Below are positions 8,204-27,235 of a stretch of DNA of 34,367 bases, piece after piece. The notes below the pieces were generated by a model. That model was not told the DNA's origin and made no database searches. It worked only from the letters and a program-made list of their open reading frames with translations. The stretch covers positions 1 through 34,367 of the forward strand of contig DOKP01000063.1 of the NCBI GenBank assembly GCA_003510795.1. Direction: 5' to 3'. This DNA comes from Candidatus Moraniibacteriota bacterium (lineage in GTDB: Bacteria; Patescibacteriota; Minisyncoccia; Moranbacterales; UBA9337). Within the stretch, counting starts at the first letter, position 1, and every line of letters begins with the position of its first letter. The translations under genes and the position numbers were made by a program.

Positions 8204-8232
8204 AAAACCCTTGATATTAAAGGGTTTTTTGC
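8204..8232 (+). terminator. rho-independent terminator after ndk
   Basis: AAAACCCTT (8204-8212), 7-nt loop, AAGGGTTTT followed by a T-run (agggttttttgc), 30 nt after the ndk stop. Confidence 0.75.
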
Positions 8233-8250
8233 TTGATTATAAAAATTAAA

Positions 8251-8286
8251 AGTATATACCTAAGTATATACCTAAGTATATACTTA
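8251..8286. repeat. 12-bp tandem repeat x3 (AGTATATACCTA), ending in a 14-bp perfect palindrome
   Basis: agtataccta-type unit at 8251-8262 and 8263-8274, with variant agtatatactta at 8275-8286. TAAGTATATACTTA (8273-8286) is self-complementary. Confidence 0.85.
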
Positions 8287-8461
8287 GGAAAATTTCAAAA
8301 TCTAAATTTCAAATTTAAAATAAATGTCTAATTTCAAATTTCCAATGCCAAATAAATTATTTAATGTTAATAATTATAAAATTTTAATTTTAGGTTTTTG
8401 ATTTTATTGGAAATTTGGAATTTGAATTTCGGCATTTTGTATAATTGTTTTTTGAGTCCAA

Positions 8462-8520
8462 ATGTTTTAATGCTAAAATGCTAACGTGCTAATATGTTAA
8501 AATGTTAATATGCTAATATG
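8462..8520. repeat. 8-bp tandem repeat (ATGYTAAN) about 7.4 units
   Basis: atgtttta atgctaaa atgctaac gtgctaat atgttaaa atgttaat atgctaat atg, read in register from 8462. Confidence 0.8.
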
Positions 8521-8593
8521 ATTTTTTCCTTGCATTTTTCTCTAATTATATTTACCATAGGGATGATGTTAAGTTGTAGAATTAGTTGAGCAA

Positions 8594-8650
8594 GAGATCT
8601 CTCCACGCATAAATTTTTGAGTACAAAAATTTATTTGGTCGAGATGACAA
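8594..8650 (+). repeat. TTG-AGTA-CAA hairpin element, copy C (5' leader of uppS)
   Basis: ATAAATTTTTG (8609-8619), loop AGTA, CAAAAATTTAT (8624-8634) form a perfect 11-bp stem. It is flanked by gagATCTCTCC and tcGAGATGac, which resemble the ATCTCCCC and GATGGAGAG blocks of copy A. Confidence 0.5.
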
Positions 8651-8674
8651 GCGTAGATAGGTTAAAATGTTAAA

Positions 8675-9394
8675 ATGAATTTTATGAATAATTTAAATTT
8701 GCCTAACCATGTCGTGATTATTCCTGATGGTAATCGGCGCTGGGCAAAAGAGAAAAATCTTAAACCTTGGGAAGGGCATATGGCAGGAGCAGAGCGCATT
8801 GAAGAGTTGGTGCGAAAGGCGCTGGAAATGCAAATAGAAAACATTTCTTTCTGGGGATCATCTGTGGATAATTTGAAAAAGCGGCCACTTTTGGAAAAGA
8901 AAGCTCTTTTGGGAATTTATGAAAAATACTTCAAAAAACTTATGGATAGCGAGGAAATTCATCAAAATGAAGCTAGAATTAATATTATTGGATGCTGGCG
9001 GGAGCAATTTCCGGAAAGTTTGAAAAAAATATTGGAAGAAGGAATCAGCAAAACTAAAAATTATAAAAAACATAATTTGAATTTTTTCTTGGCGTACAAT
9101 GGCGACCATGAAATGCTGGAAGCTATTAAAAAAATATCCAAAAAAATTGGAGATAATGTGGGAAAAATTACGCCAGAATTAATTAAGGAAAATTTGATGA
9201 CCAAAGATTTGCCGATGGTGGATTTGCTAATTCGAACAGGTGGTGAACCTCATTTATCGGCGGGTTTTATGATGTGGGATTTGGCCAACGCGCAGCTTTA
9301 TTTTTCTAGAAAATTATTTCCCAGTTTTACTAAAAATGATTTTGAAAAAGCGATTGTTGATTTTTCACAGAGAGGCCGGAGGATGGGGAAGTGA
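8675..9394 (+). CDS. uppS: isoprenyl transferase (undecaprenyl-diphosphate synthase family)
   Basis: HVVIIPDGNRRWAKE, FWGSSVDNLKKRP and LLIRTGGEPHLSAGFMMWDLANAQLYF are canonical cis-prenyltransferase motifs. Confidence 0.9.
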   Translation: MNFMNNLNLPNHVVIIPDGNRRWAKEKNLKPWEGHMAGAERIEELVRKALEMQIENISFWGSSVDNLKKRPLLEKKALLGIYEKYFKKLMDSEEIHQNEARINIIGCWREQFPESLKKILEEGISKTKNYKKHNLNFFLAYNGDHEMLEAIKKISKKIGDNVGKITPELIKENLMTKDLPMVDLLIRTGGEPHLSAGFMMWDLANAQLYFSRKLFPSFTKNDFEKAIVDFSQRGRRMGK

Positions 9395-9711
9395 CCCTGG
9401 GGGGTGGAATTTTAATACTAAAAAATCATTAAGTGATGTAATAATTTAATAATCCTTGAGTTGTTTTGAAAAAGCTTTCGAATGGGGCTTTTTTTGTTTT
9501 GTGAAATTAGATTTTTTAATTTAATTCTAGGTGTTTTTTGAGTCTTAGAACCTATTTAAAAGACCCTTATTTTTATCCACATTTTTGGGCCCAAAAAGGC
9601 TTGGAGGTTTTTTGAAAAAGGTGTATAATATAAGAGTGAAGTTAAGTAAAATAGATTCGTTAAAAAGGCTTGAATTTGTTGAATTTTTAAGGATAAAATT
9701 TGCAAGATCCA

Positions 9712-10413
9712 ATGGATGAAAAAATTGAAAATAATAATAAAAAAAAATCCAAAAAAAAGAGGATTCTACTTTTGGTTATTTTGGCTTTATTTTTAATTAT
9801 AGCAGGTTTGTTTTTCTGGAATAAAAATAGGCAGCAAACTAACAATCCGAGTGATAATGAAAATTTAAGTTTGGAGGGAGATCTGGAAAACGGGGAGCCG
9901 GAAGATGAAATTTCTGAGAACGCAAAAGATAACGGAGAAAATGTTGATAAGGCAACGGTTTTCGAAGACACGAAAGAAATGGTGAGTGAAAATTATCGAG
10001 TTAGCCAGATAAATTTCGGAGTAGGCGTTCCCATAGAGCGAGGCTTGCCCAGAGATGTTACTTTGGAAATATTTCAAGTAAAAAGTGAGATGATAATTTC
10101 CCAAGAAGATAATGAGCCCAGAATATTGATTACTTGGAAAACAAACAAAGAAGCTATCTCCAATATCGAATACGCCAAAAGTGATGGGAAAAATGCCGTG
10201 GTCATTACGGAAGAGGGATACGGATTTGAACACAGCATGCTTGTAAAAAATATGGAATTTTCTACAATTTATACTTATCGGATTGAGTCTGCGGACAAGT
10301 GGGGAAATAAAGCTAGTACAGAATATTTCAGTGCCTATACTGGAGATAAATCAGAATCGATATTTGATTTAATAACTAATGCTGTAGAAGATGTGTTTGG
10401 CTGGGCGATGTAG
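9712..10413 (+). CDS. membrane-anchored protein with an acidic linker and a C-terminal FN3 / purple-acid-phosphatase-N-like beta-sandwich
   Basis: Basic N-terminus, TM segment (ILLLVILALFLIIAGLFFW), then an E/D/N-rich linker. ILITWKTNKEAISNIEYAKSDG...YTYRIESADKWGN is an FN3-like pattern. The track start at 9700 is TTG, so the in-frame ATG at 9712 is preferred. Confidence 0.6.
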   Translation: MDEKIENNNKKKSKKKRILLLVILALFLIIAGLFFWNKNRQQTNNPSDNENLSLEGDLENGEPEDEISENAKDNGENVDKATVFEDTKEMVSENYRVSQINFGVGVPIERGLPRDVTLEIFQVKSEMIISQEDNEPRILITWKTNKEAISNIEYAKSDGKNAVVITEEGYGFEHSMLVKNMEFSTIYTYRIESADKWGNKASTEYFSAYTGDKSESIFDLITNAVEDVFGWAM

Positions 10414-10435
10414 GGGAAAAATGAAAAAATAAAGA

Positions 10436-10480
10436 AACCCCCTCTTAATCTCCCCCTTGAGTACAAGAGGGAGAAGAGAA
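10436..10480 (+). repeat. TTG-AGTA-CAA hairpin element, copy B (between the FN3-like gene and the giant gene)
   Basis: aaccccctcttaaTCTCCCCCTTGagtaCAAGAGGGAGAagag. The 11-bp stem (10449-10459 / 10464-10474) has one mismatch and loop AGTA. The outer CTCT/AGAG extends the stem. It shares the aaccccctct and atctccccctt..gagtacaa..ga.ggaga blocks with copy A. Confidence 0.55.
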
Positions 10481-10517
10481 TTGAAAAAATAAAAAATAAA
10501 AAACAATTTAAATAAAA

Positions 10518-13500
10518 ATGTTTTTCGGTAAAAAAAATAAAATTCGGGTGATATTTTTTGCTACAGTGGGCGTGCTGTTGGCGGGTTTTGTTTTTGGTTT
10601 AAACTTAGTTAAGGCGCAAACAATAAAAACAACCAAGGGTACGCTTGATATTTCAGCTTATATTTTAAACCAAGAAAATAAAGAAATTCCCAATGGAAAG
10701 TATCAAGTAAGATTTGCAATTTATTCCAAGGATAGAAGTGAAAAAGATCCTTATCCATCTGATGATGATAAGAACTCGAGAATTTGGGAAGAGGAGCAGG
10801 AAGTTGAAATTTCCAGTGGTGTTTTTAATACTTATCTGGGCTTAGTCAGCGCTCTTCCGGAGAATATTGATTTGGCGGCTAGCGAATATTATTTGGGAAT
10901 TAGAATCGGTGAAGATAGTGAGAGCATACCAAGGAAAAAAATTGGCTATGTGCCCTCAGCCATAAATGCTATAAACTCAGTTAATTCTACTTTCGTTAAT
11001 GGTGCTACTACAGGAATTGCGCAAGGAAATATTTTACTGCTTGGAAAAAATGGCAAAATAGATTTAGACAGGTTGCCTACGGGAACTGATGCAAATTCAT
11101 TGGTTTTGGGAGATGATGGAAGATTGCATGATCAAAATACGGATACGGGAACAAATTCAACGGAATTTAATATTGGCAACGGGACTGGAGTAAATAGTAA
11201 TTTTAATTTAACGGTTTCAAATGCTTCCAACAAACCCGCTATTCGATTTAACGGATTAAGCCAGAAATGGGAACTTTCAAACGATGGAACGACTTTCGCG
11301 GAATTGGGCGGAGGTAGCGCTTTGCAAAGCCAAATCGATCAGCGAGCTTTGATCGGACATACTCATTCAACTGCAGATATAATTTCCGGAACACTATCGG
11401 CTAGCCGGGGAGGTACAGGATTGGATGGAGCGTTTGCAACAGACGGTCAGCTTTTAATTGGGAATGGCACCGGTTATTCTTTGGGAAATTTAAGCAGTTC
11501 AGATTCAAGTATCGTTATCACTAATGGATCGGGTGCTATTGATTTAGTTTCTTCTCTTGGGACAAATGTAGATATCTCAAGCGAAACTAACTTGACTGCT
11601 AGCGGTTTATTGCTGAATTTAACTGGAGATAATCTTTCCATAAATGAAGGAATTCTCACTGACGGAATGCTCTGTACTTACAGTTCTACAGATGGATTAA
11701 TTTGTGATACTCTAAGCAGTTCTGTCGGACATGCGCCAGTAAGTATAGGATCTCCAGCCAATGGTCTCTCAGTGAATGGAGCGCAAACCATCAGTTTAGC
11801 TTTAGCTAGCGCAACTACCAACGGAGCGTTAAGCAGTAGCGATTGGAATATTTTTAATAATAAAGTTTCCTCGCAATGGATTACCACTGGATCAGATATT
11901 TATTATCTGGCTGGGAATGTAGGAATAGGCACTTCTTCGATTGCAGAAAGATTAACCGTGGCTGGAAATATCCAATTAAGCGGAAGTATTTTTGCAACTA
12001 ATACTTCTCAAGATATCGGAACAGCGACAGAGAGATTCAGATATGGATATTTTGAAAATTTGGATGTTAATAATATAAGCGTGGGGGGATTGGATATTTC
12101 CGGATCAATAGCAAACATATTTACCATTAATTCCAATAATGCTACCAATGATACAGAAGACAGTTTCCTTGCTTTTGATCGAGGTGAAAATGGAGGAGTT
12201 TCAAATTTACCAGCTACAATTCAGTGGGATTCTGCCAATGATATTTTTGTAACTAACTATCCATTGAGTATTTCCGGCAATGCAACGGCGGCTGGATTTA
12301 GCGTGGGCGGAGAAACAATAACTGATTGGACGGGGACGGGAATGATAATTTCCGGAGGGGCTTTGACCACATCGTTGGGGACGGCAATCGATATTTCCAG
12401 TGAAACTAATCTGGCAGTTGGCGGTACATTGCTAACTAGGGCAGATGATACTCTTTCTTTGCGTGAAGGTTTCCTTGCCAACGGCAGACTTTGTACTTAT
12501 GACACAACCTCAGGCTTGGTTTGCAATACAGACAGTGCTACTGTTGGGCACAATGCTCTTACTATCAACGCTACTGCCAACGGTCTCAGTGTTAATGCTT
12601 CTCAAGTTTTATCTTTAGCTTTAGCGAGTACTTCTACCATCGGTGCCCTTAGCGATACAGATTGGGATACTTTCAATAACAAGCAAAATGCCCTAACCCT
12701 TGGAAATATTACAGGTACAACTAATCGAGTTTCCGTGGCAGGAGGAACAGGAGCTATTATCGGAACTGGAGTAACTTTGAATCTTCCTCAAGACATTGCC
12801 ACCACCAGTACTCCAACTTTCGGAGGCTTAACTGTCAGTGGTAATCAAACAATTACTGGTTCTTTAGGTATCCGAGAAAGTACTGGAGCAACTTTCTACA
12901 CATACTTCCAAGGAGGAGATCAAAGTGGAAATATTACTTACACTTTGCCAACTGGAGCTCCGGCAAGTGATGGTTATGTTTTAACTTCTGCTGCTAATGG
13001 AACAATGAGTTGGCAATCAGTTAGTGGAACCGGAGGCACCACTGGAACCGGATCAGCTAACCAGGTAACTTACTGGACCGGCACCTCTACCTTAGCTGGA
13101 GAAAATCAATTGAATGTCAGCCGAGGAGGCACTGGAATTGATGGAAGTACCGTTGCTAACGGTAGACTTTTAATTGGAAATGGAACCGGCTACACTTTAG
13201 CTAACCTAACTAGTGCTGACAGCAGTATTGTAATTACCAATGGAGCCGGAAGTATTAATTTGGTAAGTTCGTTGGGGACGGCAATCGACATCTCTTCTGA
13301 AACTAATCTAACTGGCGACGCTGAAATAGTTCTTACCGGAGATTCTCTAAGCATCGCTGCCAGTATTGCCAGAGATAGTGAACTTCATAGTGCTGTAACT
13401 TTAAGTGGTCAAACATATTTATCATTAGTCGGTCAAGCTCTGACTGCCAGCCAAATTAATTTAACTTCCCATGTGACAGGAACACTCCCCGTAGCTAACG

Positions 13501-16500
13501 GCGGAACCGGAGCCACATCTCTAAATGATTTAATTACTCTGGGCACTCACACAGCTGGAAATTACATCTCTACCGTCACCGGCAACACTCAAATCGTAGT
13601 CGGGGGAGTAGGAGCAGAAAATGCTACTGCAACTTTATCTATCGGAGCAGATTCAATTGGAGATACTCAACTAGCTTTTAACACCGGTCAACATCTAGCC
13701 ACCACCAACTCCCCAACCTTTGCCGGTCTAACTTTAAATGGCAATCAAACTTTAAATGGAACATTAGCTATTAGAGAAGGCGGAGGAACACCAACTAACT
13801 ACACAACTTTTGTCGGAGGAGTGCAAAGTGCGGATGTAACTTACACCCTTCCAACGGGAGCTCCTTCTAGCAATGGCTATTTCCTATCTGCTCAAACAGA
13901 TGGAACTTTAGCTTGGCAATCAATTTCTGGAGCAGGGGGAATGAATTCTTTTTCTCTCTCTGCCGATACTGGAACTACTCAAACAATTGGTGATTCAGAA
14001 ACAGTTAATATTTTAGGCGGAACTAATCTAGCTTCAACTATCGATGCTTCCAACAATGTTACTCTAAACTTAGATTCCACTTTAACGGGAGTAACTTGGA
14101 ATGGAAATGATATTGATATTTCTGATTACACTAATTTAAGTGGCAACGCTGAAATAGTTCTTACCGGAGATTCTCTAAGCATCGCTGCCAGTATTGCCAG
14201 AGACTCTGAACTTCACACTATCGCAACTGTCAGCGGTACTCCAAACTATATCACTCTAAGTGGACAAGATATCGTGCGAAGTTTAATTAATTTAACTTCC
14301 CATGTGACAGGAACACTCCCCGTAGCTAACGGCGGAACCGGAGCTATCACTTTAAATGATTTAATTACTCTCGGCACTCACACAACTGGCAGTTATGTGA
14401 ACACCATCACCGGCAACACTCAAATCGTAGTAGGCGGAGTAGGAGCAGAAAATGCTACTGCGACTTTATCTATCGGAGCTGATTCAATCGGAGATACTCA
14501 ACTGGAATTTAATACCGGGCAAAATTTAACTACCACATCTTCCCCAACCTTTGCCGGTCTAACTTTAAATGGCAATCAAACAGTTAATGGAACATTAGCT
14601 ATCAGAGAAGGCGGAGGAACACCAACTAATTACACAACTTTTGTCGGAGGAGTGCAAAGTGCGGATGTAACTTACACCCTTCCAGTTGCAGGAGGGAATG
14701 ATGGAGAAGTTTTAAAAACAGATGCTAGTGGTAACTTGTATTGGGCGTTAGTGGCTGGAGGAACAGGCGGGATTGGAACAGTTACTAGTGTTAGTTCAGG
14801 CAACGGTTTAACAGGAGGTCCAATAACTGGATCAGGAACTTTATCTATTAATTTATTATCTACTGACACCGATAGTGCAACAGCATCTTCTTATTCCGGA
14901 ATGGAATTTGTGGGCGGACAATTATCATTAATTAGAGGTTGTGGAGCCAATGAAGTAATGGGTTGGGACAATACAAATGGAGTTTGGAAATGTACATCGG
15001 TTTCTGGAACAGGTGGAACAACCGGCTCTGGTTTGGCGGGACATATTCCTTATTGGTCAAGCGCAAGTAATCTTACTTATGACAGTAATGGAGACTTTTT
15101 TTGGGATGTTGCTAATAATAGACTAGGAATTGGAACAACTTCTCCCGTAACTGCCTTGGATGTAAATGGAACAATTACAACTACCGGACTAACTTTAAAT
15201 GGCAATCAAACTTTAAATGGAACTCTCGCCATTAGAGAAGGCGGAGGAACACCAACTTTTTATACAACTTTTCAAGGAGCGGATCAACTAGGAAATATTA
15301 CTTATATATTGCCAGCATCAAATACAAACGGTTTGCTTCGAAATACTGCTGGAGTTTTATCTTGGGATACAAATAGCTATTTAACTGCTAATCAAACTAT
15401 TACACTTACGGGCGACGTGACAGGCAGTGGCACAACTTCAATTGATACTATAGTAGGAGATGATTCTCATGCTCATACTTCTACAACTCTTCCTGCTTCC
15501 ATTTCATATTTAGGAAGTCAAATTGACATTTCCAGTGAAACCAATCTCTCCGGCGACACAGAGATAGTTCTTACTGGAGACTCATTATCTATCGCAGCCT
15601 CGATTGCCAGAGATAGTGAACTTCACACTATCGCTACTATGAGTGGCACTCCAGACTATATTACTCTTGTTGGACAAGATATTGTCAGAGGATTAATCGA
15701 TTTAACAAGCGACATTATCGGAACACTCCCGATAGCCAATGGAGGAACCGGAGCTACATCTTTAAATGATTTAATTACTCTCGGCACTCACACAGCCGGA
15801 AATTACATCAACACTATTACCGGTAACACTCAAATTGTTGTCGGGGGAGTGGGAGCAGAAAATGCTACTGCGACTTTATCTATCGGAGCCGATTCCATCG
15901 GAGATACACAATTAGAATTCAACACCGGACAAAATCTAACTACCACAAGTTCCCCAACATTTGCCGGACTAACAGTTAGTGGTAATCAAACAGTAACCGG
16001 AACTTTAGGAATTAGAGAAAGTACCGGAGCAACTTTCTATACATATTTCCAAGGAGCAGATCAAATAGGGAATGTAACTTATACTTTACCCTCGGGTGCG
16101 CCAGTGGCTGATAATTATGTTTTGACTTCCGCTATGGATGGAACTTTGGCGTGGCAATCAAGTGGAGCGGTGGGAGCAGTAAATGGAAATGGGGCTGCTA
16201 ATCAAGTAGCCTATTGGACCGGAGTGGGAACAATTGCCGGAGAAAACCAACTCAACGTAAGTCGAGGAGGAACAGGAGTTAACGCTTCTGCTATTGCTGA
16301 TGGACAACTTCTAATTGGAAATGACACAGCTAATAACTATACTTTAGCCACCTTAACTCCCGGAGATGGAATTAATATTACCAATGGAGCCGGATCAATT
16401 ACAGTAGCTTCCACCTTAGGAACGAGTATTGATATATCCAGCGAAACTAATCTGGCTGGAGATTCTGAAATAGTTTTAGATAGTGACTCTCTATATATTG

Positions 16501-19500
16501 CCGCTTCAATTGCTCGCGACTCTGAACTACATGACTCTATGACCTTAAGCGGAGAGTCTTATCTTTCCAGAGTCGGTCAAGCTCTAACCGCTAACCAAAT
16601 TAATCTTGCCAGCCATGTAACTGGAACACTTCCAATTGCTAACGGCGGAACCGGAGCTGTAACTTTAGATAATTTAATCACTCTCGGCACTCACACAACG
16701 GGTAGTTATGTAAACACCATTACCGGCAACACTCAAATAGTTGTCGGCGGAGTAGGAGCAGAAAATGCTACCGCGACTTTAGCTATCGGAGCAGACTCCA
16801 TCGGAGATACTCAATTAGAATTTAATACCGGACAAAATTTAACTACCACAAGTTCCCCAACATTTGTCGGCTTAACTTTAAATGGCAATCAAGCAATTAC
16901 GGGAACTTTGGGAATCCGAGAAAGTGACGGAGCAACTTTCTATACTTATTTCCAAGGAGCCGATCAAATCGGGAATGTAACTTATACTTTACCATCAGGT
17001 GCGCCAGTGGCTGATAATTATGTTTTAACTTCCGCTACGGATGGAACCATGAGTTGGTCATTAGTCAGTGGAGTGGGCGGAATGAGTTCCTTTTCTCTCG
17101 CAGCGGACACCGGCACCACTCAAACTATTGGCAATACTGAAACAGTTTCAATTTTAGGCGGTACTAACATAGCTTCAACTATCGATGCGTCTAACAATGT
17201 TACTCTAAACTTAGATTCCACTTTAACGGGAGTGACTTGGAATGGAACTGATATTGATATTTCTGATTACACTAACCTTGCTGGCGACACAGAAATAGTT
17301 CTTACTGGAGATTCTCTAAGCATTGCAGCCAGTATCGCCAGAGATAGTGAGCTTCACAGCGAAGTAACTTTAGGCGGAGAGTCATATCTTTCCAGAGTTG
17401 GTCAAGCTCTAACGGCTAATCAAATTAATCTTGCCAGCCATGTAACCGGAACACTTCCGATTGCTAACGGCGGAACCGGAGCGACAACTCTTAATGATTT
17501 AATTACTCTCGGAACTCACACAGCTGGAAATTATGTGCAGTCGATAACTAATGGTGATGGAATTTTAGGTGGAAACGGAGGAAGCGAGGGTTCAGCGCTT
17601 ACTCTTTCTATAGACGCACTTACGACTGGCACAACTCTTACTACTTTTTCTAATTCCGGATTAGAGACCACCGCCGATGGAGTGAGATTAATCGGGGGAT
17701 GTAATGATGGACAAATTTTAACTTGGGATGCGGATGATGTCAGATGGGAGTGCACTACTAATACAGCCGGATCAAGCGATTGGACTGATGACGGAACCGC
17801 TACTTATCTAACAGACGTGACTAATGATTTTATTATCGGAGGAACTTCTCTAGCTTCTTCGATGTTTGGTGTTGATGAATCAGCTGGAGCGTTCTATTTT
17901 GGTTCAGACGCGAGCGCTAACCCAAGTTTTAACTTCACCGCTACCGATAGCGATACCGGAACTTTTGGATTTAATGATAATGACGCATTTTATTTCAGTG
18001 GAGCGAATGTGGGGATTGGGATAGCTGCTCCAACAGAAGCATTACATATTTCGGGGGGAAATATATTATTAGATAATACATATAGCTTAAAATGGTCTGC
18101 CGGTCCGCAAATTACAGGTGGCCCATCAATGACAATAGACGGGGGGACAAACGTATTGAACTTTAGAGGAAATTCCACAAATCATACTTTCATTTCCGTT
18201 GGCGGAAATTGGGGGCTTGGAGATGCGACACCTGAATCGCGGATGGAAATTAGCGCAAATGGAGGAGCTACTGATTTATTTATGCTTTCTTCGAATGATG
18301 ATCTTAATGGAGATTTATTTGTAGTTAAAAATTCTGGTTATGTCGGTATTGGCGACACCACTCCCGCCTCATTATTCACTGTTGGTGATGGTGATTTATT
18401 CCAAATCAATTCTTCTGGTCAAGTAGTGGCTGGAACATGGAACGGAACAGATATTGATATTTCTGACTATACCAATCTGGCCGTAGATGGATCAGGTGAA
18501 ATCGTTTTAACCGGAGATACTTTAAGTATCGCGGCTTCAATTGCTCGCGACGCTGAACTGCATGATGCTATGACCTTAAGTGGAGAATCGTATCTTTCCA
18601 GAGTCGGTCAAGCTCTGACAGCTGCTCAAATTAACCTCGCTTCTCATGTAACCGGAACTCTCCCAGTCGGAAATGGTGGCACCGGACTGAGTGCCTACGG
18701 AACCTCTAACCAAATCATGGGAATGAACGCGGCCGGCAATGCCCTCGAATACAAAACAGTTAGTGGAACTGCTAATCAAATTACAGTTACAAACGCGGTT
18801 AATTCTTTAACTTTATCTTTACCACAAGATATTGCCACCACATCGAGCCCAACATTTGCCGGAGTAACATTGAGTGGACTTACCCCCGGATCAATTCCAT
18901 TTATTGGAACGGGTGGAATAGTTTCGCAGGATAACTTAAATCTATCTTGGAATGACGCGAGCAATTATCTTTATCTTGGTTCAGCTTTCTCGTTTGGCAT
19001 TGACGCGACTGATTCCAATAAATTTAAAATATATTCCGGCAATGGCATCGCAGGAACATCTGAATTTAGCATTGATGAAAATGGAGTTACTTCAATTGCT
19101 AATCTTGAGCTGGGAGAATTGGCTTTTAATGATGATTCCGGGGCGATCTCTTGGATTGATATGGGAGTTACGTCTGGTGCAGTGGACAATACGATAGAAT
19201 CATATACTGCTCAACTTGACGGTAATCCAATGCTAACAATTTATGGCCTTTCTGATGGATTGGGTGGAGTAGACAATTTGGGGGTCGGCATCGGCACAGT
19301 TACTCCAACTGCCAAACTTCACATTGCTGCGGGAATGGCAACTGCAGGCGGAGCTCCTCTCAAACTAACCAGCGGAACAAATTTAACCACTCCCGAAGCT
19401 GGAGCTTTTGAATATGATGGTACTAACTTATATTTCACTCCAAATACTACTCGAGAAGAAGTCGCCTTTATGAGTGATATTACCGCTTCAGCTGTCACGC

Positions 19501-22500
19501 TCACCAATTCTCCCGCTACTTATGATTACCTTACAATTTCCGATCAAGCGATTACTCTTAATCAAATAAATTTAACTACTGATGTAACCGGAACATTGCC
19601 AGTCGGAAATGGTGGAACTGGCTTGACTTCATACGGCGCTGCTAATCAAATCATGGGAATGAATGCGGCTGGGGACGCCTTGGAATACAAAACAGTTTCT
19701 GGGACTGCCAATCAAGTTACAATTACCCCAGCCGCTAATTCTTTGACCTTATCTTTACCTCAAGATATCCACACCGCCGCCAATCCGACATTCGCTGGCC
19801 TGACTTTAAGCGGCCTCACTGCCGGTTCAATTCCATTCATCGGAACAGGCGGAATAGTTTCGGAGGATAATGACAATTTATTTTATGACGTGACAAATCA
19901 TTATCTGGGACTGGGTACAACAACTCCAACATATATGCTAGACATTGCAGGTGCTAGCGGACTTTCCAATCTATTTAGGATTTCTTCCGCCGGCTCCGAC
20001 ATCATGACCGTGACTGATACCCAAACAACTTTCAGCAATCCAGTCGCCTTCGGTTCAGTTGGAGATGTCTCAATGGCGTATGATTTGGTGATGAGTAATT
20101 CTTCATCTGCTAATATTAATTTTAATGGTTCAGGATATATTCAAACCACTAGCGCTTGGCAAAATCTAGATCTGACATTGAGCGCGGCTAATGATGGTTA
20201 TATCGTGGCGGCTGACACTCTTTTAAATGATGTCGATTTATCTGCTGTTACTGCCGGGGAGTATTATGGAACTAACATTGATGTGGATTCAACTGGAATA
20301 TTTACCACCGGCACGACTAATATTTATGGCATCAATTCTAACGCCACTGCCAGCGGAATTTCCACCGGTGGAACAGTCAATACTTACGGCGGATATTTCA
20401 GCGCCACAGGAGAAAACACCGGCGCTGCTACGACCAATGCTTATGGACTCTATGTAAACGGTGCCACCGGCGCGGATAATAATTATTCCGCCGCCTTTAT
20501 GAATGGAAATGTGGGGATTGGAACAGCCACGCCAACTTATAATTTAGAAATAGCTGATGATAGCAGTGAATTATATAGTTTTTATGCAAATAAAAGCAAT
20601 GGAAATACGGACAGTTCTGTAATTCGTGCTTCAGGAACCAGTAACACGACAGGTGTTCGTTCTTCGGCTGTTGGTGGATGGGCATTAAGAGGTGATCATG
20701 CTGGTACTGCTTCTGGAGGCGCACTGCAACTGTATAGTGGAAGCATAACTTCTTCTGTTCTTGCATATTTTACACAAGCTAGTAGTGTTTTTTCAGGCGA
20801 TGCATTAGTTATGAACATGGGAAGGGGAGGCGGATCGTTTACAGGAAACTTTATCAATCTTCAGGTTAATGATAGCTCTTTGTTTACAATCAACGCCAGC
20901 GGGCAAGTGGTAGCGGGCACCTGGATGGGCGCCACTATTGGAGTGGGTTATGGAGGAACGGGAACTTCGACTGCCTTTACAACTGGTTCAATTCCATTTG
21001 CTGGAGCGGGCGGAGTGTATACCCAGGATAATAGTAATTTCTTCTGGGATAACTCCACTAAGCGCTTAGGAATTGGTACCAATACTCCTGGATCAATGCT
21101 TGATTTATTTGGAGTAAATAATCAATTGAGATTCTCTTATGATATTAGCAATTACGCTACGCTTTCGGCTGATAATACTGGCGCTCTCGTGATGAGCGGT
21201 AGTGGCGCGAGTGGTTCAAAAATAACTATCGGTTCGGGCTTAGCCGAAGATTCTTTGGCAATTTTTGATGGCAATGCTCAGGACTTTCATTTAGGCTTGG
21301 ATGACACGGATGACATCTTTAAAATCGGTTTAGGCGGAGCTTTGGGCACGACTGATTTCTTATCCATGGATGCCAATGGAAGAATCGGCATTGGTACCGT
21401 AGCGCAAACAGCATTATTACACCTAAATGGAACTGAGGGCGTGGTGGGATTAGAAATTAATTCTAATCAAACTACCTCCACAAATAATATTATGATGCTT
21501 CGCTCAGATGTGGCGAGCGCCGATGATGCAGTTTTCCGCGTGCAAGCCAATGGAGCGGTTTATGCTGATGGAGCTTACACGGGGACAGGCGCAGACTATG
21601 CTGAGTATTTCTTTACTAAGAACAAAGATTTAGTGGCCGGAGAAACAGTTTGTATCGATGAAGAAAATAATAATGCCATAAAGAGATGTAGCCGAAGCGG
21701 AGACACTAATATCATGGGTATTGTTTCCAGCAATCCTTCGGTAATCGGTAATGGCCAAGATGACAGAGAAAATGATGAGAATTATAAAGTGATTGGAATG
21801 TTAGGCCAGATTCCAGCCAGAGTAAATGATGAAAACGGAGCTATCAAAATCGGAGATGGATTAGCTGCGGCCAATATGCCCGGATATTTAAGAAAAGCCG
21901 AAGCCGGAGAGTCAACGGTTGGTATCGCGTTGGAGAAATTAGTTAGCGGTGATAGTACAATTCAAGTGATGATTTCCAGGAGGAATAAAAGCTTGACCGT
22001 AGAAACCGTCGAGCAATCTATCCAAGACAGAATTGCCAATATGGAAATAGAAGATCAAGTTAATCAAATTATTGCCAATGGCGCAGAAATGTTGGAAGTT
22101 AGATCCAGTTTAGCGAGCTTGGAATTGGCTGTAACTGGCAATGGTCTTTTGGTTACTGATATTCAAATCCAGATGAATCAAATCAAAGAACAAATTAGAG
22201 AGATTGATTTTGTTGAGATGAATGATAAACTGGATACTCTTTTGAGCTTTTTAGATGCGTCCGATGGAAATGTAAAAATTGATGGAAAATTAGAAGTAGC
22301 CATAACGGAAACAGGCGCTTTGGTGATAAAAAATATTGACTTAGAGGCGCCAACAATTGGAACTGGAAAAATTTGCGGTTTGATTGCGGATACTAAAGAT
22401 GAGAACGGAAATTACGATAATATTGATGATTGCAGTGGAAATAAAATTCCATATGACAAAGATGGAGACCAAATGAATGATTGGACAAATAATACTGAGC

Positions 22501-22769
22501 CGATGCCCAAAGATGAAAATCATGATTGGATTGATGACGATACGCATGAGCCCATTATTAATAATGGAAAGAAAGTAATCGTTCCTACTAAAGCTGTAAG
22601 TAAAAATAGTAAGATATTTGTCACCTCTACTTCAGCCGCTATTATTCAACCATTGGCAGTAGTAGATATCAAAGAAGGTGAAAGCTTCACAATCGAAACA
22701 AATGACGGCATAGAAGTCGACAACGCTTTGGAATTCAATTGGTGGATTGTGGAAGAAGGGAAAGAATAA
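10518..22769 (+). CDS. giant (4083 aa) secreted tail-fibre-like repeat protein with a peptidase-G2/IMC-like C-terminal region, coiled coil and acidic Asp-rich tail
   Basis: Uninterrupted 12.25-kb ORF with an N-terminal signal/TM (VIFFATVGVLLAGFVFGLNLVKAQ). At least 8 modules begin with DISSETNL / DIDISDYTNL and contain LP[VI][AG]NGGTGA..LNDLITLG, a phage-tail-fibre-like GGTG motif. GADYAEYF...IMGIVSSNPSVIGN...IGDGL starting near nt 21588 resembles the peptidase G2 / intramolecular-chaperone autocleavage domain of phage appendage proteins. A heptad-like segment spans ~21990-22260, and the tail is DxD-rich. Confidence 0.85.
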   Translation: MFFGKKNKIRVIFFATVGVLLAGFVFGLNLVKAQTIKTTKGTLDISAYILNQENKEIPNGKYQVRFAIYSKDRSEKDPYPSDDDKNSRIWEEEQEVEISSGVFNTYLGLVSALPENIDLAASEYYLGIRIGEDSESIPRKKIGYVPSAINAINSVNSTFVNGATTGIAQGNILLLGKNGKIDLDRLPTGTDANSLVLGDDGRLHDQNTDTGTNSTEFNIGNGTGVNSNFNLTVSNASNKPAIRFNGLSQKWELSNDGTTFAELGGGSALQSQIDQRALIGHTHSTADIISGTLSASRGGTGLDGAFATDGQLLIGNGTGYSLGNLSSSDSSIVITNGSGAIDLVSSLGTNVDISSETNLTASGLLLNLTGDNLSINEGILTDGMLCTYSSTDGLICDTLSSSVGHAPVSIGSPANGLSVNGAQTISLALASATTNGALSSSDWNIFNNKVSSQWITTGSDIYYLAGNVGIGTSSIAERLTVAGNIQLSGSIFATNTSQDIGTATERFRYGYFENLDVNNISVGGLDISGSIANIFTINSNNATNDTEDSFLAFDRGENGGVSNLPATIQWDSANDIFVTNYPLSISGNATAAGFSVGGETITDWTGTGMIISGGALTTSLGTAIDISSETNLAVGGTLLTRADDTLSLREGFLANGRLCTYDTTSGLVCNTDSATVGHNALTINATANGLSVNASQVLSLALASTSTIGALSDTDWDTFNNKQNALTLGNITGTTNRVSVAGGTGAIIGTGVTLNLPQDIATTSTPTFGGLTVSGNQTITGSLGIRESTGATFYTYFQGGDQSGNITYTLPTGAPASDGYVLTSAANGTMSWQSVSGTGGTTGTGSANQVTYWTGTSTLAGENQLNVSRGGTGIDGSTVANGRLLIGNGTGYTLANLTSADSSIVITNGAGSINLVSSLGTAIDISSETNLTGDAEIVLTGDSLSIAASIARDSELHSAVTLSGQTYLSLVGQALTASQINLTSHVTGTLPVANGGTGATSLNDLITLGTHTAGNYISTVTGNTQIVVGGVGAENATATLSIGADSIGDTQLAFNTGQHLATTNSPTFAGLTLNGNQTLNGTLAIREGGGTPTNYTTFVGGVQSADVTYTLPTGAPSSNGYFLSAQTDGTLAWQSISGAGGMNSFSLSADTGTTQTIGDSETVNILGGTNLASTIDASNNVTLNLDSTLTGVTWNGNDIDISDYTNLSGNAEIVLTGDSLSIAASIARDSELHTIATVSGTPNYITLSGQDIVRSLINLTSHVTGTLPVANGGTGAITLNDLITLGTHTTGSYVNTITGNTQIVVGGVGAENATATLSIGADSIGDTQLEFNTGQNLTTTSSPTFAGLTLNGNQTVNGTLAIREGGGTPTNYTTFVGGVQSADVTYTLPVAGGNDGEVLKTDASGNLYWALVAGGTGGIGTVTSVSSGNGLTGGPITGSGTLSINLLSTDTDSATASSYSGMEFVGGQLSLIRGCGANEVMGWDNTNGVWKCTSVSGTGGTTGSGLAGHIPYWSSASNLTYDSNGDFFWDVANNRLGIGTTSPVTALDVNGTITTTGLTLNGNQTLNGTLAIREGGGTPTFYTTFQGADQLGNITYILPASNTNGLLRNTAGVLSWDTNSYLTANQTITLTGDVTGSGTTSIDTIVGDDSHAHTSTTLPASISYLGSQIDISSETNLSGDTEIVLTGDSLSIAASIARDSELHTIATMSGTPDYITLVGQDIVRGLIDLTSDIIGTLPIANGGTGATSLNDLITLGTHTAGNYINTITGNTQIVVGGVGAENATATLSIGADSIGDTQLEFNTGQNLTTTSSPTFAGLTVSGNQTVTGTLGIRESTGATFYTYFQGADQIGNVTYTLPSGAPVADNYVLTSAMDGTLAWQSSGAVGAVNGNGAANQVAYWTGVGTIAGENQLNVSRGGTGVNASAIADGQLLIGNDTANNYTLATLTPGDGINITNGAGSITVASTLGTSIDISSETNLAGDSEIVLDSDSLYIAASIARDSELHDSMTLSGESYLSRVGQALTANQINLASHVTGTLPIANGGTGAVTLDNLITLGTHTTGSYVNTITGNTQIVVGGVGAENATATLAIGADSIGDTQLEFNTGQNLTTTSSPTFVGLTLNGNQAITGTLGIRESDGATFYTYFQGADQIGNVTYTLPSGAPVADNYVLTSATDGTMSWSLVSGVGGMSSFSLAADTGTTQTIGNTETVSILGGTNIASTIDASNNVTLNLDSTLTGVTWNGTDIDISDYTNLAGDTEIVLTGDSLSIAASIARDSELHSEVTLGGESYLSRVGQALTANQINLASHVTGTLPIANGGTGATTLNDLITLGTHTAGNYVQSITNGDGILGGNGGSEGSALTLSIDALTTGTTLTTFSNSGLETTADGVRLIGGCNDGQILTWDADDVRWECTTNTAGSSDWTDDGTATYLTDVTNDFIIGGTSLASSMFGVDESAGAFYFGSDASANPSFNFTATDSDTGTFGFNDNDAFYFSGANVGIGIAAPTEALHISGGNILLDNTYSLKWSAGPQITGGPSMTIDGGTNVLNFRGNSTNHTFISVGGNWGLGDATPESRMEISANGGATDLFMLSSNDDLNGDLFVVKNSGYVGIGDTTPASLFTVGDGDLFQINSSGQVVAGTWNGTDIDISDYTNLAVDGSGEIVLTGDTLSIAASIARDAELHDAMTLSGESYLSRVGQALTAAQINLASHVTGTLPVGNGGTGLSAYGTSNQIMGMNAAGNALEYKTVSGTANQITVTNAVNSLTLSLPQDIATTSSPTFAGVTLSGLTPGSIPFIGTGGIVSQDNLNLSWNDASNYLYLGSAFSFGIDATDSNKFKIYSGNGIAGTSEFSIDENGVTSIANLELGELAFNDDSGAISWIDMGVTSGAVDNTIESYTAQLDGNPMLTIYGLSDGLGGVDNLGVGIGTVTPTAKLHIAAGMATAGGAPLKLTSGTNLTTPEAGAFEYDGTNLYFTPNTTREEVAFMSDITASAVTLTNSPATYDYLTISDQAITLNQINLTTDVTGTLPVGNGGTGLTSYGAANQIMGMNAAGDALEYKTVSGTANQVTITPAANSLTLSLPQDIHTAANPTFAGLTLSGLTAGSIPFIGTGGIVSEDNDNLFYDVTNHYLGLGTTTPTYMLDIAGASGLSNLFRISSAGSDIMTVTDTQTTFSNPVAFGSVGDVSMAYDLVMSNSSSANINFNGSGYIQTTSAWQNLDLTLSAANDGYIVAADTLLNDVDLSAVTAGEYYGTNIDVDSTGIFTTGTTNIYGINSNATASGISTGGTVNTYGGYFSATGENTGAATTNAYGLYVNGATGADNNYSAAFMNGNVGIGTATPTYNLEIADDSSELYSFYANKSNGNTDSSVIRASGTSNTTGVRSSAVGGWALRGDHAGTASGGALQLYSGSITSSVLAYFTQASSVFSGDALVMNMGRGGGSFTGNFINLQVNDSSLFTINASGQVVAGTWMGATIGVGYGGTGTSTAFTTGSIPFAGAGGVYTQDNSNFFWDNSTKRLGIGTNTPGSMLDLFGVNNQLRFSYDISNYATLSADNTGALVMSGSGASGSKITIGSGLAEDSLAIFDGNAQDFHLGLDDTDDIFKIGLGGALGTTDFLSMDANGRIGIGTVAQTALLHLNGTEGVVGLEINSNQTTSTNNIMMLRSDVASADDAVFRVQANGAVYADGAYTGTGADYAEYFFTKNKDLVAGETVCIDEENNNAIKRCSRSGDTNIMGIVSSNPSVIGNGQDDRENDENYKVIGMLGQIPARVNDENGAIKIGDGLAAANMPGYLRKAEAGESTVGIALEKLVSGDSTIQVMISRRNKSLTVETVEQSIQDRIANMEIEDQVNQIIANGAEMLEVRSSLASLELAVTGNGLLVTDIQIQMNQIKEQIREIDFVEMNDKLDTLLSFLDASDGNVKIDGKLEVAITETGALVIKNIDLEAPTIGTGKICGLIADTKDENGNYDNIDDCSGNKIPYDKDGDQMNDWTNNTEPMPKDENHDWIDDDTHEPIINNGKKVIVPTKAVSKNSKIFVTSTSAAIIQPLAVVDIKEGESFTIETNDGIEVDNALEFNWWIVEEGKE
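13287..18560 (+). repeat. array of ~0.83-1.4 kb intragenic repeat modules with long near-identical DNA stretches
   Basis: Module starts lie near 13287, 14109, 15525, 16431, 17250 and 18450, with degenerate copies near 11571 and 12390. For example, the 56-nt gctgaaatagttcttaccggagattctctaagcatcgctgccagtattgccagaga is identical at 13319 and 14148. A ~60-nt stretch (...catgtgacaggaacactccccgtagctaacggcggaaccggagc) is identical near 13450 and 14290. Confidence 0.85.
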
Positions 22770-22770: not shown

Positions 22771-22809
22771 TCTTTGGATTTTTCGATGGGCGGGACGAGT
22801 TGGTGTGAG
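22771..22809 (+). pseudogene. 13-codon relic of the dockerin-like C-terminal module (SLDFSMGGTSWCE)
   Basis: atgggcgggacgagttggtgtga at 22786-22808 is an exact 23-nt match to 34340-34362, the 3' end of the gene at 32513-34366. The relic translates as SLDFSMGGTSWCE versus SLGLSMGGTSWCE. It begins 2 nt after the giant gene's stop and has no upstream ORF of its own. Confidence 0.7.
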
Positions 22810-22853
22810 TGGATCATTTTGCAATTAAAGTAATAATTTTTCTAAGTATTCTA

Positions 22854-24590
22854 ATGATGAAAGAAATAAAATTGATAATTATTTTAGTTTCTTTGATATT
22901 TTATCTGGGAGTGTCCGCTAAAAATGTTTTTGCCGCGGACTTCTATATCTCACCGACCGGGAATGATTCTAATAACGGGCAGACTTCCAGCACTCCTGTG
23001 GCGACATTCGCGCATGCTGAAACACTTCTCAATGCTGGCGATACACTCATTCTGATGGACGGGATATATAATCAGCAACTCCACCCGAGAAAATCAGGCA
23101 CTGAAGGGAACCCTATTACGTATATGGCGCAAAATCGGGGACAGGCGATAATCCAGATGACAACGCCTGGAGAAGCCATTCTTCTAGCCAGTAATTCAAG
23201 CGGTTATCCGGGGGGAGCGTTTTACTGTCACGACATTACCATCGATGGCCTGATTGCGAGGAGTAATGGAGAATATAATACAATTGTGATTAATAGCTGG
23301 GATTCTGCAACTGAAGCAGAAATGGTAAAACGCATTATAATCAGGAACATAGGAGCGTTCGGGTCGGCTCTTGACGCCAACGCCGCTGCCGTAGCAATAG
23401 GAAATAACGCTACTTATATTACCATTGAGGACAGCTTTGCCTACGGCATAGGTCGGGCAGCAATGATTGCTTTTGGTTCGAGTCATATAACCGTCAGGCG
23501 AGTCGTTTTGAGGTATGATTACTGGCGGGGAACAGGGAAAATAAACGATCCAAGGAGAGCATTTTCAGGATATAACACCCAAGACTCAGTTTTTGAAAAT
23601 ATTATAGTTCTCGATGGGGCGCCGATGCCCCCAGAAGTGAGCTGCGATATGGCGGGAATGGTTGCCAGTGGGAATTTGACTCCGGCGTACGTAACACATA
23701 GTGCCAGAAACAAATATTTAGGATCGATTGTTCTCAATACTGTTGGTAATGGTTTGTTAACAAATGGTGGTGGGTCGCCTAATGAAGATCAGCAATTTAA
23801 AGATTTGATATTTCATAAAGTTACCGGCTATGGTGCTGTTGTTGAACAGCTAGAGACAAGGGGAATATATGAATATATTACAATCAAAAACTCTGGGGCA
23901 CTTGGATTTAAAACAGGGACTAATGGTGTGTCAGACGAAACCATTAAAAACTTTTTTATTGACACTACAGGTGGGGTTGGATTTTATTTAGAAAATCCTT
24001 CTGCTGTAACCACGTTTGTAGATAATACAGCTATCAATCTTGTATCTGGTAGTCCAATCGAGGCATCATATGCTCCAACATTAGATTATCTCACTAGGCC
24101 CACAATGGTAACTGGACATGAGCGCGGTGGAACTATGGTAAACCGTTACGTCGATGGCAACTTGACATCAATCCCTTTGTGGCCATGGCCCAATGAGGAT
24201 TTAATCAGGGAAAATATGTGTGATCCTGATGATTTAATTACTGCCCATCGAACATCAGCCAATGGCGCAGGATGGGAACCTGAGTGGTGCGCTTCCAACA
24301 AAACATTAACAGAACATATTTGGGAATACTTGGGCAATGAATGTCCTGAAGAAATATGCGGAGCAATATCTATCCGCTCGGACGTCGACAATTCTTCCGC
24401 CACCAACACCACTGACGCACTTCTGACTCTCCGCAATTCCCTCGGCCTTTCCATGGACGGTACGGCGTGGCAAGTGGGAGCGACAACTGGCGACGTGGAT
24501 TGTAGTGGTGCTTCCAATTCGACTGATGCACTTTTAATTCTTCGATATTCTTTGGGACTCTCGATGGATGGGACGAGTTGGTGCGAATAA
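22854..24590 (+). CDS. secreted right-handed parallel beta-helix (pectin-lyase-fold) protein with a C-terminal double dockerin-like module
   Basis: Signal peptide MMKEIKLIIILVSLIFYLGVSAKNVFAA from the ATG at 22854 (the track start at 22809 is GTG). DFYISPTGNDSNNG...AGDTLILMDGIY is the typical beta-helix N-cap. The C-terminus has two EF-hand-like segments, DVDNSSATNTTDALLTLRNSLGL and GDVDCSGASNSTDALLILRYSLGL. Confidence 0.8.
   Translation: MMKEIKLIIILVSLIFYLGVSAKNVFAADFYISPTGNDSNNGQTSSTPVATFAHAETLLNAGDTLILMDGIYNQQLHPRKSGTEGNPITYMAQNRGQAIIQMTTPGEAILLASNSSGYPGGAFYCHDITIDGLIARSNGEYNTIVINSWDSATEAEMVKRIIIRNIGAFGSALDANAAAVAIGNNATYITIEDSFAYGIGRAAMIAFGSSHITVRRVVLRYDYWRGTGKINDPRRAFSGYNTQDSVFENIIVLDGAPMPPEVSCDMAGMVASGNLTPAYVTHSARNKYLGSIVLNTVGNGLLTNGGGSPNEDQQFKDLIFHKVTGYGAVVEQLETRGIYEYITIKNSGALGFKTGTNGVSDETIKNFFIDTTGGVGFYLENPSAVTTFVDNTAINLVSGSPIEASYAPTLDYLTRPTMVTGHERGGTMVNRYVDGNLTSIPLWPWPNEDLIRENMCDPDDLITAHRTSANGAGWEPEWCASNKTLTEHIWEYLGNECPEEICGAISIRSDVDNSSATNTTDALLTLRNSLGLSMDGTAWQVGATTGDVDCSGASNSTDALLILRYSLGLSMDGTSWCE
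24372..24590 (+). repeat. conserved 3' dockerin-like module, copy 1
   Basis: About 215 nt, roughly 85% identical by eye to 34146-34366, while the upstream parts of the two genes are unrelated in sequence. Confidence 0.8.
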
Positions 24591-24658: not shown

Positions 24659-25315
24659 ATGAAAAAAATAAAAGCCTATTGGCAAAAAAATCCCAAGAAA
24701 AGAAAATTGATGATGTTTGGGGTAGTAGTTGTAGGTATGGCTTTATCTTTCGGATTGTATGCCTTGGCGCAGTCGTTTATCGACAGTTTTCTGGACACAA
24801 CCAGAATTGCCAATACTTGGAATGTAAATGTGGACACTGGGGCGGGAGAAATCAAACTGGCTGATAAAACTTGCGATGACGGCGTGTGGTTTTGCTCTCT
24901 ATCGACCACTTGTACCAACAGTCTGGGAGATGGCACCAATATTATCGTCAAAAGAGTTAATGAAACCGGTAGCAAACAATGGAAACCGGCCAACACGGCT
25001 TGCGACAAACCAAATTGCGCGACTGACGGCGGGCAAGACGGAGATAATCTGGTGGCGGATAACACGGTCAACTTCTCTGGTTATCCCGCGCAGGATGCTT
25101 GCAAGATGGCAGGTGGTAGGTTGCCCACTATCAGCGAATTGCAATGCATCTATGCTAACCGTACGATTTTTGGAAATAATTTTGGCACGAGCTATTACTG
25201 GAGTGCGACAGAGGGCTCTACGACGTACGCCCGCCTCGTGAATTTCAATGACGGCAATTCGAACTACAACCTTAAGACGAATAGCTACTCAGTCCGCTGT
25301 GTGCGAGGTTGGTAA
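24659..25315 (+). CDS. DGR target protein: membrane-anchored, Cys-rich, C-terminal DUF1566 / C-type-lectin-like domain carrying the variable region
   Basis: N-terminal TM (LMMFGVVVVGMALSFGLYALA). GGRLPTISELQCIY...YYWSATE...VNFNDGN...YSVRCVRGW matches the DUF1566 (Lcl C-terminal-like) pattern. The last 44 codons are the VR. The gene is noticeably more GC-rich than its neighbours, which produces several spurious overlapping ORFs. Confidence 0.9.
   Translation: MKKIKAYWQKNPKKRKLMMFGVVVVGMALSFGLYALAQSFIDSFLDTTRIANTWNVNVDTGAGEIKLADKTCDDGVWFCSLSTTCTNSLGDGTNIIVKRVNETGSKQWKPANTACDKPNCATDGGQDGDNLVADNTVNFSGYPAQDACKMAGGRLPTISELQCIYANRTIFGNNFGTSYYWSATEGSTTYARLVNFNDGNSNYNLKTNSYSVRCVRGW
25181..25313 (+). 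other. DGR variable region (VR) with putative IMH at its 3' end
   Basis: Aligns without gaps to 25536-25668 (offset 355). There are 11 mismatches in 25181-25308, at 25193, 25214, 25215, 25226, 25235, 25236, 25265, 25271, 25272, 25286 (10 positions) plus none elsewhere; counting both bases of each doublet gives 11, and every one corresponds to an A in the TR. Confidence 0.95.
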
Positions 25316-27211: not shown

Positions 27212-27235
27212 ATTCCATTTTTGTGAGTGCTCTTG

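Follow-up and report, generated by a model that had tools for sequence, protein, structure and literature searches.

By what means the ultrasmall cells of Patescibacteria (the Candidate Phyla Radiation, CPR) find and hold their hosts is largely unexplained, type IV pili being the sole device with good support. The locus described here raises the question of what such a bacterium, tiny and probably symbiotic, makes with a single gene of 4083 codons. The gene lies on contig DOKP01000063.1 of a Candidatus Moraniibacteriota assembly (GCA_003510795.1), a stretch of 34,367 nucleotides analysed as a whole and referred to below as the window. It runs from ATG to stop at 10518-22769 on the forward strand, the strand of all features of this gene given below. 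An earlier reading of the letters alone (the original prediction) had described its product as a phage tail-fibre-like surface protein containing a self-cleaving chaperone. We consider it probable that this chromosomal gene of a Moranbacteria-like cell codes for a surface fibre of great length, exported by Sec and composed of modules of the phage tail-fibre type, probably assembled as a homotrimer. The evidence is set out below from the ends of the protein inwards, followed by its closest relatives among known fibres, the way in which it may assemble, and the alternatives.

A giant, probably secreted protein

The single giant open reading frame (ORF) is beyond reasonable doubt, as 4083 stop-free codons have a chance probability of ~1e-109 at the base composition of the window. 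The product has a mass of 417 kDa, a pI of 4.05 and a composition dominated by small and polar residues (Gly 13%, Thr 13%, Ser 10%, Asn 8%). Self-similarity of the protein spans aa ~250-3170; the two ends, aa 1-250 and 3650-4083, have no repeated counterpart in the chain.

Judged by its sequence, the N-terminus, MFFGKKNKIRVIFFATVGVLLAGFVFGLNLVKA|QT, is a Sec signal peptide whose cleavage site is of the AxA type (aa 1-33, 10518-10616; predicted signal peptidase I site VKA|QT), in keeping with the signal or anchor sequence originally proposed. In 13 N-terminal homologues and three full-length relatives the arrangement recurs without exception: ...A|Q, then a conserved domain. The domain that follows (aa 34-~250, 10617-11267) has no internal repeat and is conserved in Moranbacteria-type fibres; it has 14 homologues, all from Moranbacteria or other Patescibacteria, and is present in eight related loci. 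By analogy with the MAT fibres of Bdellovibrio discussed below, we propose that it may serve as the cell-proximal anchor. All 12 cysteines of the protein fall into six close pairs with a spacing of 10-19 residues (aa 386/396, 659/669, 1475/1492, 2395/2412, 3712/3724 and 3953/3972), a pattern that suggests disulfide-stapled loops in an extracellular protein. Combined with the conservation of the signal peptide in homologues and the acidic pI, these pairs argue for an extracellular location of the fibre.

A phage-type chaperone and its predicted cleavage site

When C-terminal fragments were scanned, as opposed to the full 4083-aa query with which the match does not appear, aa ~3674-3830 (21537-22007) matched the Pfam family PF11962 (Peptidase_G2), whose cut-off is 25 bits, with scores of 38.7, 39.0 and 41.5 bits (E-values between 1e-10 and 1e-9). 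A family profile made from the fibre and its relatives (alignment A1) and searched against the PDB reached the pre-neck appendage protein gp12 of Bacillus phage phi29 (E 6.5e-11) and Dpo31, the tailspike of a marine podovirus, with its D4 autochaperone (E 4e-10), as well as 8h2i, a 1343-aa chain labelled 'P22'. A phmmer search of the C-terminus against the PDB gave weak MAT matches only, gp12 being reached only via the family profile. The profile match by which the original prediction proposed to test its assignment to a G2 chaperone was therefore found, while the Peptidase_S74 family, which it had also named as a search target, was not: PF13884 is unlisted even at E<=10 for aa 3600-4083, and the SDxxxK motif is missing from this segment.

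Structural comparison gave the same picture. An AlphaFold2 (AF2) model of aa 3600-4083 has a confidence (pLDDT) of 89-97 across the G2 region, and a Foldseek search of this region against the PDB returned 3suc (E 3.9e-5) and 3gqh_A (TM-score 0.55 normalised to target) at the top, followed by phage cement and decoration proteins. The model also matched BFVD entries, one named 'preneck appendage protein barrel', on which it fits with an rmsd of 2.1 Å over 141 columns (E 1.9e-10), and another named 'Peptidase G2 IMC'. Profile match, gp12 alignment, model and fold search together support the identity of aa ~3674-3830 as a phage-type G2 intramolecular chaperone.

The motif GADYAEYF noted near nt 21588 is present, its D being aa 3693 (nt 21594), as are IMGIVSSNPSVIGN and the heptad-like and Asp-rich segments of the same earlier description. 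More specifically, G-A3692-D3693-Y-A-E3696-Y-F aligns on W-S691-D692-F-A-E695-Y-F of gp12, and the first residue of the crystallised autocleaved fragment 3gqh (163 residues, 692-854) falls on the aligned Asp. Because the alignment places the S691|D692 junction of gp12 there and 3gqh starts on the Asp, we predict cleavage at A3692|D3693 (nt 21593/21594), between the codons for A3692 (21591-21593) and D3693 (21594-21596). The predicted products are a 371-kDa fibre and a 42.8-kDa C-terminal fragment. The Asp and Glu of the gp12 site, which we take to be catalytic, belong to a motif, D[YF][AS]E[YFW], that is kept in 135 of 138 family representatives, and ADYAE is invariant in alignments A1 and A5. 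CPR-type G2 domains are distinguished from phage-type ones by the lack of a ~60-aa insert and by the pair Cys3712/Cys3724, kept in every CPR-type sequence and missing from the phage-type ones; such a pair would fit folding outside the cytoplasm.

In the fibre the chaperone is not the end of the protein, a circumstance that the original prediction did not weigh. A total of 391 aa lie beyond D3693, compared with ~173 in the phage-type members P0047-P0054 and 340-700 in relatives; counted from the end of the G2 domain, 253 aa follow in the fibre and 150-650 or more in nearly all relatives, with a family median of 416. The first part of this segment is a helical, heptad-like stretch (aa 3828-3914, 21999-22259) that AF2 models as helices (model residues 229-315, with low confidence in the monomer); its consensus SLTVE.VE..V..RIA.M.IED.V is conserved in the family and the stretch is presumed to form a trimeric coiled coil. 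An acidic loop (aa 3953-4018, 22374-22571) begins with Cys3953, contains Cys3972, DKDGDQMND and DENHDWIDDD, and is modelled as low-pLDDT coil; for the possible Ca binding raised in the original prediction it offers no Pfam match, just a TSP3-like DxDGD pattern, and it is found in the closest relatives P0001 and P0003 only, being absent from P0010. The protein ends in a β-domain (aa 4019-4083, 22572-22766; last residues FNWWIVEE) with a pLDDT of ~80-90. This domain is related to K1-lyase_C (PF24146), which is found at the C-terminus of a capsule lyase from a Klebsiella phage: the fibre itself stays under the cut-off (E 1.8e-4), and 12 of 24 family members match, the best with E 1.4e-8. A profile of the β-domain found no match in the PDB.

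Tails differ across the family, with K1-lyase_C-like ends in 49 of 170 members, ...GFRCA[KR] ends in 17 and other ends in 104, and some homologues carry precomputed Ig-like and other domains. The GFRCA[KR] tails (P0014, P0024, P0036, P0140, P0192, P0222, P0248, P0252 and others), which end ...GFVRG...IGFRCA[KR], resemble the C-type-lectin/FGE-like ends that diversity-generating retroelements (DGRs) diversify; Pfam and PDB searches gave zero support for reading them as lectin domains of that type.

A stalk of diverged fibre modules

Most of the protein is a repeat stalk (aa 352-3100, 11571-19817) of eight modules of 273-470 aa, each beginning DIS[SD][EY]TNL. The eight DISSETNL-type starts claimed originally are all there; the accompanying claim that every module carries the whole motif set holds for only four of them, at aa 924, 1200, 1670 and 1972, in which LPxxNGGTG..LNDLITLG, SPTFAGLT and GTLAIRE are all found, and the other four are partial variants. 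Counted across the protein there are eight DIS[SD][EY]TNL, seven xNGGTG, 13 GGTG, six [ST]PTF[AVG]G[LV]T and six G[TS]L[AG]IRE motifs. At the DNA level the stalk repeats are diverged (70-95% identity) and include a ~3.1-kb super-repeat, as in the pairing of 12801-14195 with 15942-17336.

The distal stalk (aa 3101-3673, 19818-21536) is characterised by x-V-G-I-G-T-x-x-P-x-x-x-L capping-loop motifs at aa 3130, 3332, 3517 and 3623. These are four of nine in the whole fibre, where 0.37 would be expected from shuffled sequences. The motif aligns weakly to the β-helix of the Bdellovibrio protein Bd3182 (8ojn, E 0.058, phmmer; 8onc, fold E 0.07).

The resemblance to tail fibres on which the original prediction rested is supported by several matches. 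The PHROG tail fibre family phrog_31660 matches five stretches of the stalk (E 5.6e-10); over 94 aa the stalk is 67% identical to a protein with an S74 domain, and sub-modules also recur in Mtd_N-bearing proteins. The stalk further shares 34% identity over 111 aa with protein family P0103/P0109, of which P0109 is encoded in a T4-like phage contig among neck and packaging genes. A tblastn search against 50,697 phage records yielded three short matches for one module and zero for the C-terminal region.

Comparison with known fibres

The C-terminal domains of gp12 and Dpo31 are autochaperones that are removed after folding, the last residue of mature gp12 being Ser. The fibre has in common with gp12 (PDB 3GQ7-3GQK, 3SUC) and Dpo31 D4 a homologous chaperone of the same fold with an S/A-D-[YF]-A-E-Y-F site, placed C-terminal to a fibrous or β-helical trimer-forming region. 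It differs in that its gene is cellular and its product secreted rather than part of a virion; in that its G2 domain is internal, with a coiled coil and a β-domain after it (253 aa), lacks the ~60-aa insert and has the conserved Cys pair; and in that the passenger is a 3650-aa repeat fibre instead of a β-helix enzyme.

Among cellular structures, the MAT (mosaic adhesive trimer) fibres of Bdellovibrio bacteriovorus come nearest, more specifically the S74 subgroup exemplified by Bd3182. MAT fibres consist of a signal peptide, a conserved, β-rich N-terminal domain of ~130 aa, a trimeric β-helix/prism stalk with capping loops and an S74 chaperone or variable tips, and their function in prey recognition is experimentally backed (Caulton et al. 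2024, PMC10769870). Both systems are cellular. Behind the signal peptide each has a conserved N-terminal domain, comparable between the two in where it lies and how long it is; each has mosaic modules and, on the C-terminal side, a chaperone of a phage autoproteolytic type, and both stalks carry the motif V-G-x-G-T-x-x-P-x-x-x-L. The capping-loop motif that marks MAT fibres, V-G-G/N-π-x-x-P-x-x-x-L, occurs in nine copies in the fibre, where it is recognised by its sequence pattern. Bdellovibrio, moreover, is a bacterium living on other bacteria. In contrast to MAT proteins, the fibre has a chaperone of the G2 rather than the S74 type, is ~4x longer and uses other stalk modules; G2, coiled coil and K1-lyase_C-like domain stand in place of S74 or the described non-S74 tips; the envelope of the fibre-bearing cell is probably monoderm; and whereas MAT function rests on experiments, that of the fibre is read from sequence.

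Phage fibres and tailspikes of the S74 type (K1F endosialidase, T5 pb1) follow the fold-then-cut logic proposed here for the fibre and share sub-modules with the fibre through S74-bearing proteins, and the Klebsiella phage K1 capsule lyase has the K1-lyase_C domain to which the terminal β-domain is related. Unlike these, the fibre has neither S74 nor a detected depolymerase domain and lies outside a virion.

Proposed assembly

On the reading that we prefer, a long exported fibre that folds with the help of its own chaperone, the signal peptide would be removed at A33|Q34, as predicted from the sequence, and the N-terminal domain would hold the fibre at the envelope, possibly via a membrane protein encoded just upstream; synteny and the MAT analogy both point this way. 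As the chain would exit N-terminus first, the C-terminal unit of G2, coiled coil and small β-domain would emerge last. This unit may then register three chains, after which the ~3600-residue stalk would zip up from its distal end, as gp12 and Dpo31 suggest. G2 would cut at A3692|D3693, a site placed by alignment, and so free the 371-kDa fibre from a 43-kDa fragment. Extrapolating from Bd2133, in which 370 aa correspond to 14.2 nm (PMC10769870), the mature fibre may be ~100-200 nm long and could contact and hold another cell or surface.

Several observations weigh against this scheme. A Pfam scan of the entire 4083-aa protein gave zero matches, and the PF11962 match is partial: of the 228 profile positions it takes in ~32-98, along with one further, weak stretch. 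The AF2 monomer of one repeat module has a pLDDT of 64 and is mostly coil, too poor a model to establish the fold of the stalk. Likeness to cultured phages is limited to short stretches, and in the portion that would be left after cleavage no adhesin or lectin domain was recognised. Trimerisation, autocleavage, surface display and host attachment are inferred features of the fibre. Cleavage of phi29 gp12 is reportedly ATP-dependent, a requirement that could not apply to a fibre outside the cell. Finally, an internal G2 domain fits poorly with a simple use-and-discard chaperone.

Alternative readings

The last point leads to the strongest alternative, namely that the fibre is the same in all other respects while its G2-like domain stays uncut, acting as a β-tulip-like trimerisation knot and leaving the coiled coil and β-domain in place as a distal ligand-binding tip. 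This would account for the internal position of G2 in nearly all Patescibacteria relatives, with its median of 416 aa beyond, and for tails that are variable and modular, and it has precedents in the MAT fibres, which bind via variable C-terminal tips (PMC10769870), and in the P22 tailspike, which retains its autochaperone uncleaved. We nevertheless regard it as rather unlikely, since the near invariance of the gp12 cleavage-site residues and the Glu (135 of 138) is hard to explain other than by catalysis, and no binding domain was positively identified in the tail of the fibre.

A second alternative, that the protein is a structural coat or spacer (S-layer-like, a glycosylated fibril or part of a biofilm matrix) that takes no part in partner-cell recognition, is improbable. 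Its appeal lies in the acidic, G/T/S/N-rich composition, in a repeat number that varies freely among relatives and in the long N-terminal part: Pfam and NCBIfam scans of ten 500-aa chunks left aa 1-3650 without any match, and this region has no recognisable adhesin, lectin or enzyme domain. The architecture, however, is that of the receptor-binding fibres of phages and Bdellovibrio and not of S-layer proteins, the phage-type fibre modules are exchanged with phage genes, and many of the genes nearby code for secreted proteins that probably bind ligands or act on glycans, next to a DGR lectin.

A cellular gene with a conserved partner

The original prediction took the gene for a cellular, non-prophage one and named a prophage setting as the finding that would overturn it. 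On the 5' side lie genes for an ADP-forming acyl-CoA synthetase, RecJ, a HAD hydrolase, NDK and UppS, as well as a PaaX-like regulator, a transglycosylase and a 237-aa membrane protein; on the 3' side follow secreted β-helix, LamG and dockerin-like proteins and then the DGR. The order uppS, small membrane protein, fibre recurs on a 197-kb contig of a 'Parcubacteria group' metagenome-assembled genome (MAG; locus L002), with identities of 81% for UppS, 62% for the small membrane protein, and 64% and 68% for the N- and C-terminus of the fibre. From this synteny and from the flanking genes we conclude that the fibre gene is cellular, not part of a prophage, and is vertically conserved with a conserved partner. 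An ordinary phage, prophage or tailocin fibre gene lying in the window by chance deserves very little credence: phage-type modules, a G2 domain, a nearby DGR (a kind of element first described in phages) and the placing of all window genes on one strand would suit it, but it is at odds with a 34-kb window that has no capsid, portal, terminase, tail, tail tube, sheath or baseplate genes, with the uppS synteny in a related genome, with the predicted cleavable signal peptide, with the CPR-type Cys pair of G2 that phage sequences lack, and with a C-terminal region unmatched in the 50,697 phage records.

The partner (9700-10413, forward strand; 237 aa) has an N-terminal transmembrane helix, an acidic linker and an FN3/Pur_ac_phosph_N-like domain, the assignments coming from weak Pfam matches. 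It is encoded directly upstream of the fibre in six related loci (L002, L005, L008, L013, L031 and L049), one of which, L013, has an intact 2623-aa fibre beside it. Judging by this synteny, the 237-aa protein is a candidate membrane dock for the fibre. The fibre at L005 (2467-11089), from a MAG of Moraniibacteriota, is not one ORF but two that overlap, 2467-4461 and 4289-11089, which may reflect a frameshift, an assembly error or a pseudogene.

Family size and distribution

The fibre is one member of a large family, not a singular find. A search with the G2 segment returned 10,706 cluster representatives at E<=1e-3, of which 332 remain when the threshold is tightened to E<=1e-30. Great length is common among them: of the best 150 cluster representatives 52 have at least 2000 aa, 27 at least 3000 aa and 10 at least 4000 aa, the longest reaching 6890 aa. 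In contigs representing one genome per species, CPR-type G2 domains are encoded at 169 places or more. The best 80 of these 169 places are nearly all in Patescibacteria, their lineages including Moraniibacteriota, Parcubacteria, Falkow-, Kaiser-, Sacchari-, Komeili-, Magasanik-, Nomura- and Peregrinibacteria and WWE3. Twelve records with G2 (L003, L004, L006, L010, L014, L016, L017, L030, L032, L062, L067 and L069) are titled 'uncultured Gammaproteobacteria' or 'uncultured Bdellovibrionales'; these unconfirmed titles could reflect either mislabelled taxonomy or a wider host range, a GC content of 33-47% being indecisive.

Relatives with the same two ends have about 1300-4083 aa, and the giant size can therefore be attributed to repeat expansion. 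Complete genes are seldom recovered: at 48 of 81 loci the ORF overruns the fetched or assembled sequence upstream of G2 (flank up to 10 kb), putting the full length beyond reach, and two related fibre loci are interrupted by gaps. As all 14 homologues of the N-terminal domain are partial, fibre genes evidently break assemblies. Some relatives already go under the NCBI name 'peptidase G2 autoproteolytic cleavage domain-containing protein', and a literature search found no published description of such Patescibacteria proteins; the family is widespread in Patescibacteria and apparently undescribed.

Neighbouring genes and the downstream retroelement

A complete DGR occupies 24659-27859 and comprises a target gene with a Lcl_C lectin-like end (24659-25315), bAvd (25738-26145) and a reverse transcriptase (RT, 26126-27211); at the end of the DGR region is a gene for a 23S_rRNA_IVP-like four-helix protein (27296-27859). 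Between the variable region (VR, 25181-25308) and the template repeat (TR, 25536-25663) there are 10 substitutions, every one at a TR adenine and none elsewhere. The fibre was considered as a target of this DGR and rejected, the sole VR of the window being that at 25181-25308. Also rejected was DGR linkage as a family-wide trait, because no more than 3 of the 81 family loci have an RT at a distance of up to 10 kb, so that the association of DGR and fibre is local rather than general. At L001 (1-13438; relative P0003) the 3' end of an orthologous fibre, broken by an N gap and reaching the contig end, is followed by Lcl_C genes, RT and bAvd as in the window.

Other secreted products surround the fibre. 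A 437-aa protein (6146-7459), its N-terminal half a long coiled coil and its C-terminal half resembling SLT_2 lytic transglycosylases, is, from its sequence, a possible cell-wall-cutting enzyme. Two β-helix-like proteins (22809-24590 and 32513-34366) share 82%-identical 229-nt ends (24362-24590 and 34138-34366) that encode a dockerin-type-I-like double repeat, for which no cohesin partner was identified. Between them, a 1523-aa protein (27932-32503) carries two LamG (Laminin_G_3) domains at its C-terminus, and its interior has two halves that resemble each other (repeats 29721/30969 and 31271/31937). Together with its neighbours, the LamG protein gives the region the look of a gene cluster for surface interactions. 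Neither an Rfam nor a tRNA scan of the window gave a match.

Implications

The gene provides a complete example of a protein that is seldom assembled in full, and it anchors a family that spans many Patescibacteria lineages and parallels the prey-recognition fibres of Bdellovibrio with a different phage chaperone. Judged by their architecture, these proteins are a good candidate for how Patescibacteria hold hosts. The reading makes testable predictions, namely cleavage at A3692|D3693, a 43-kDa fragment and a membrane partner encoded just upstream, and it raises the wider question of the role of an intramolecular chaperone that is internal. We suggest, as a speculation that we hold to be possible though doubtful, that Patescibacteria domesticated the receptor-binding-fibre hardware of phages, that giant trimeric G2-jointed fibres are their main host-recognition organelle, with modules exchanged with their own phages, and that G2 is a built-in break point and not a disposable chaperone. 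If this were true, the G2 joint would split one polypeptide into a stalk and a separable, lineage-specific coiled-coil/tip module, and such a tip might be retained, released or swapped.

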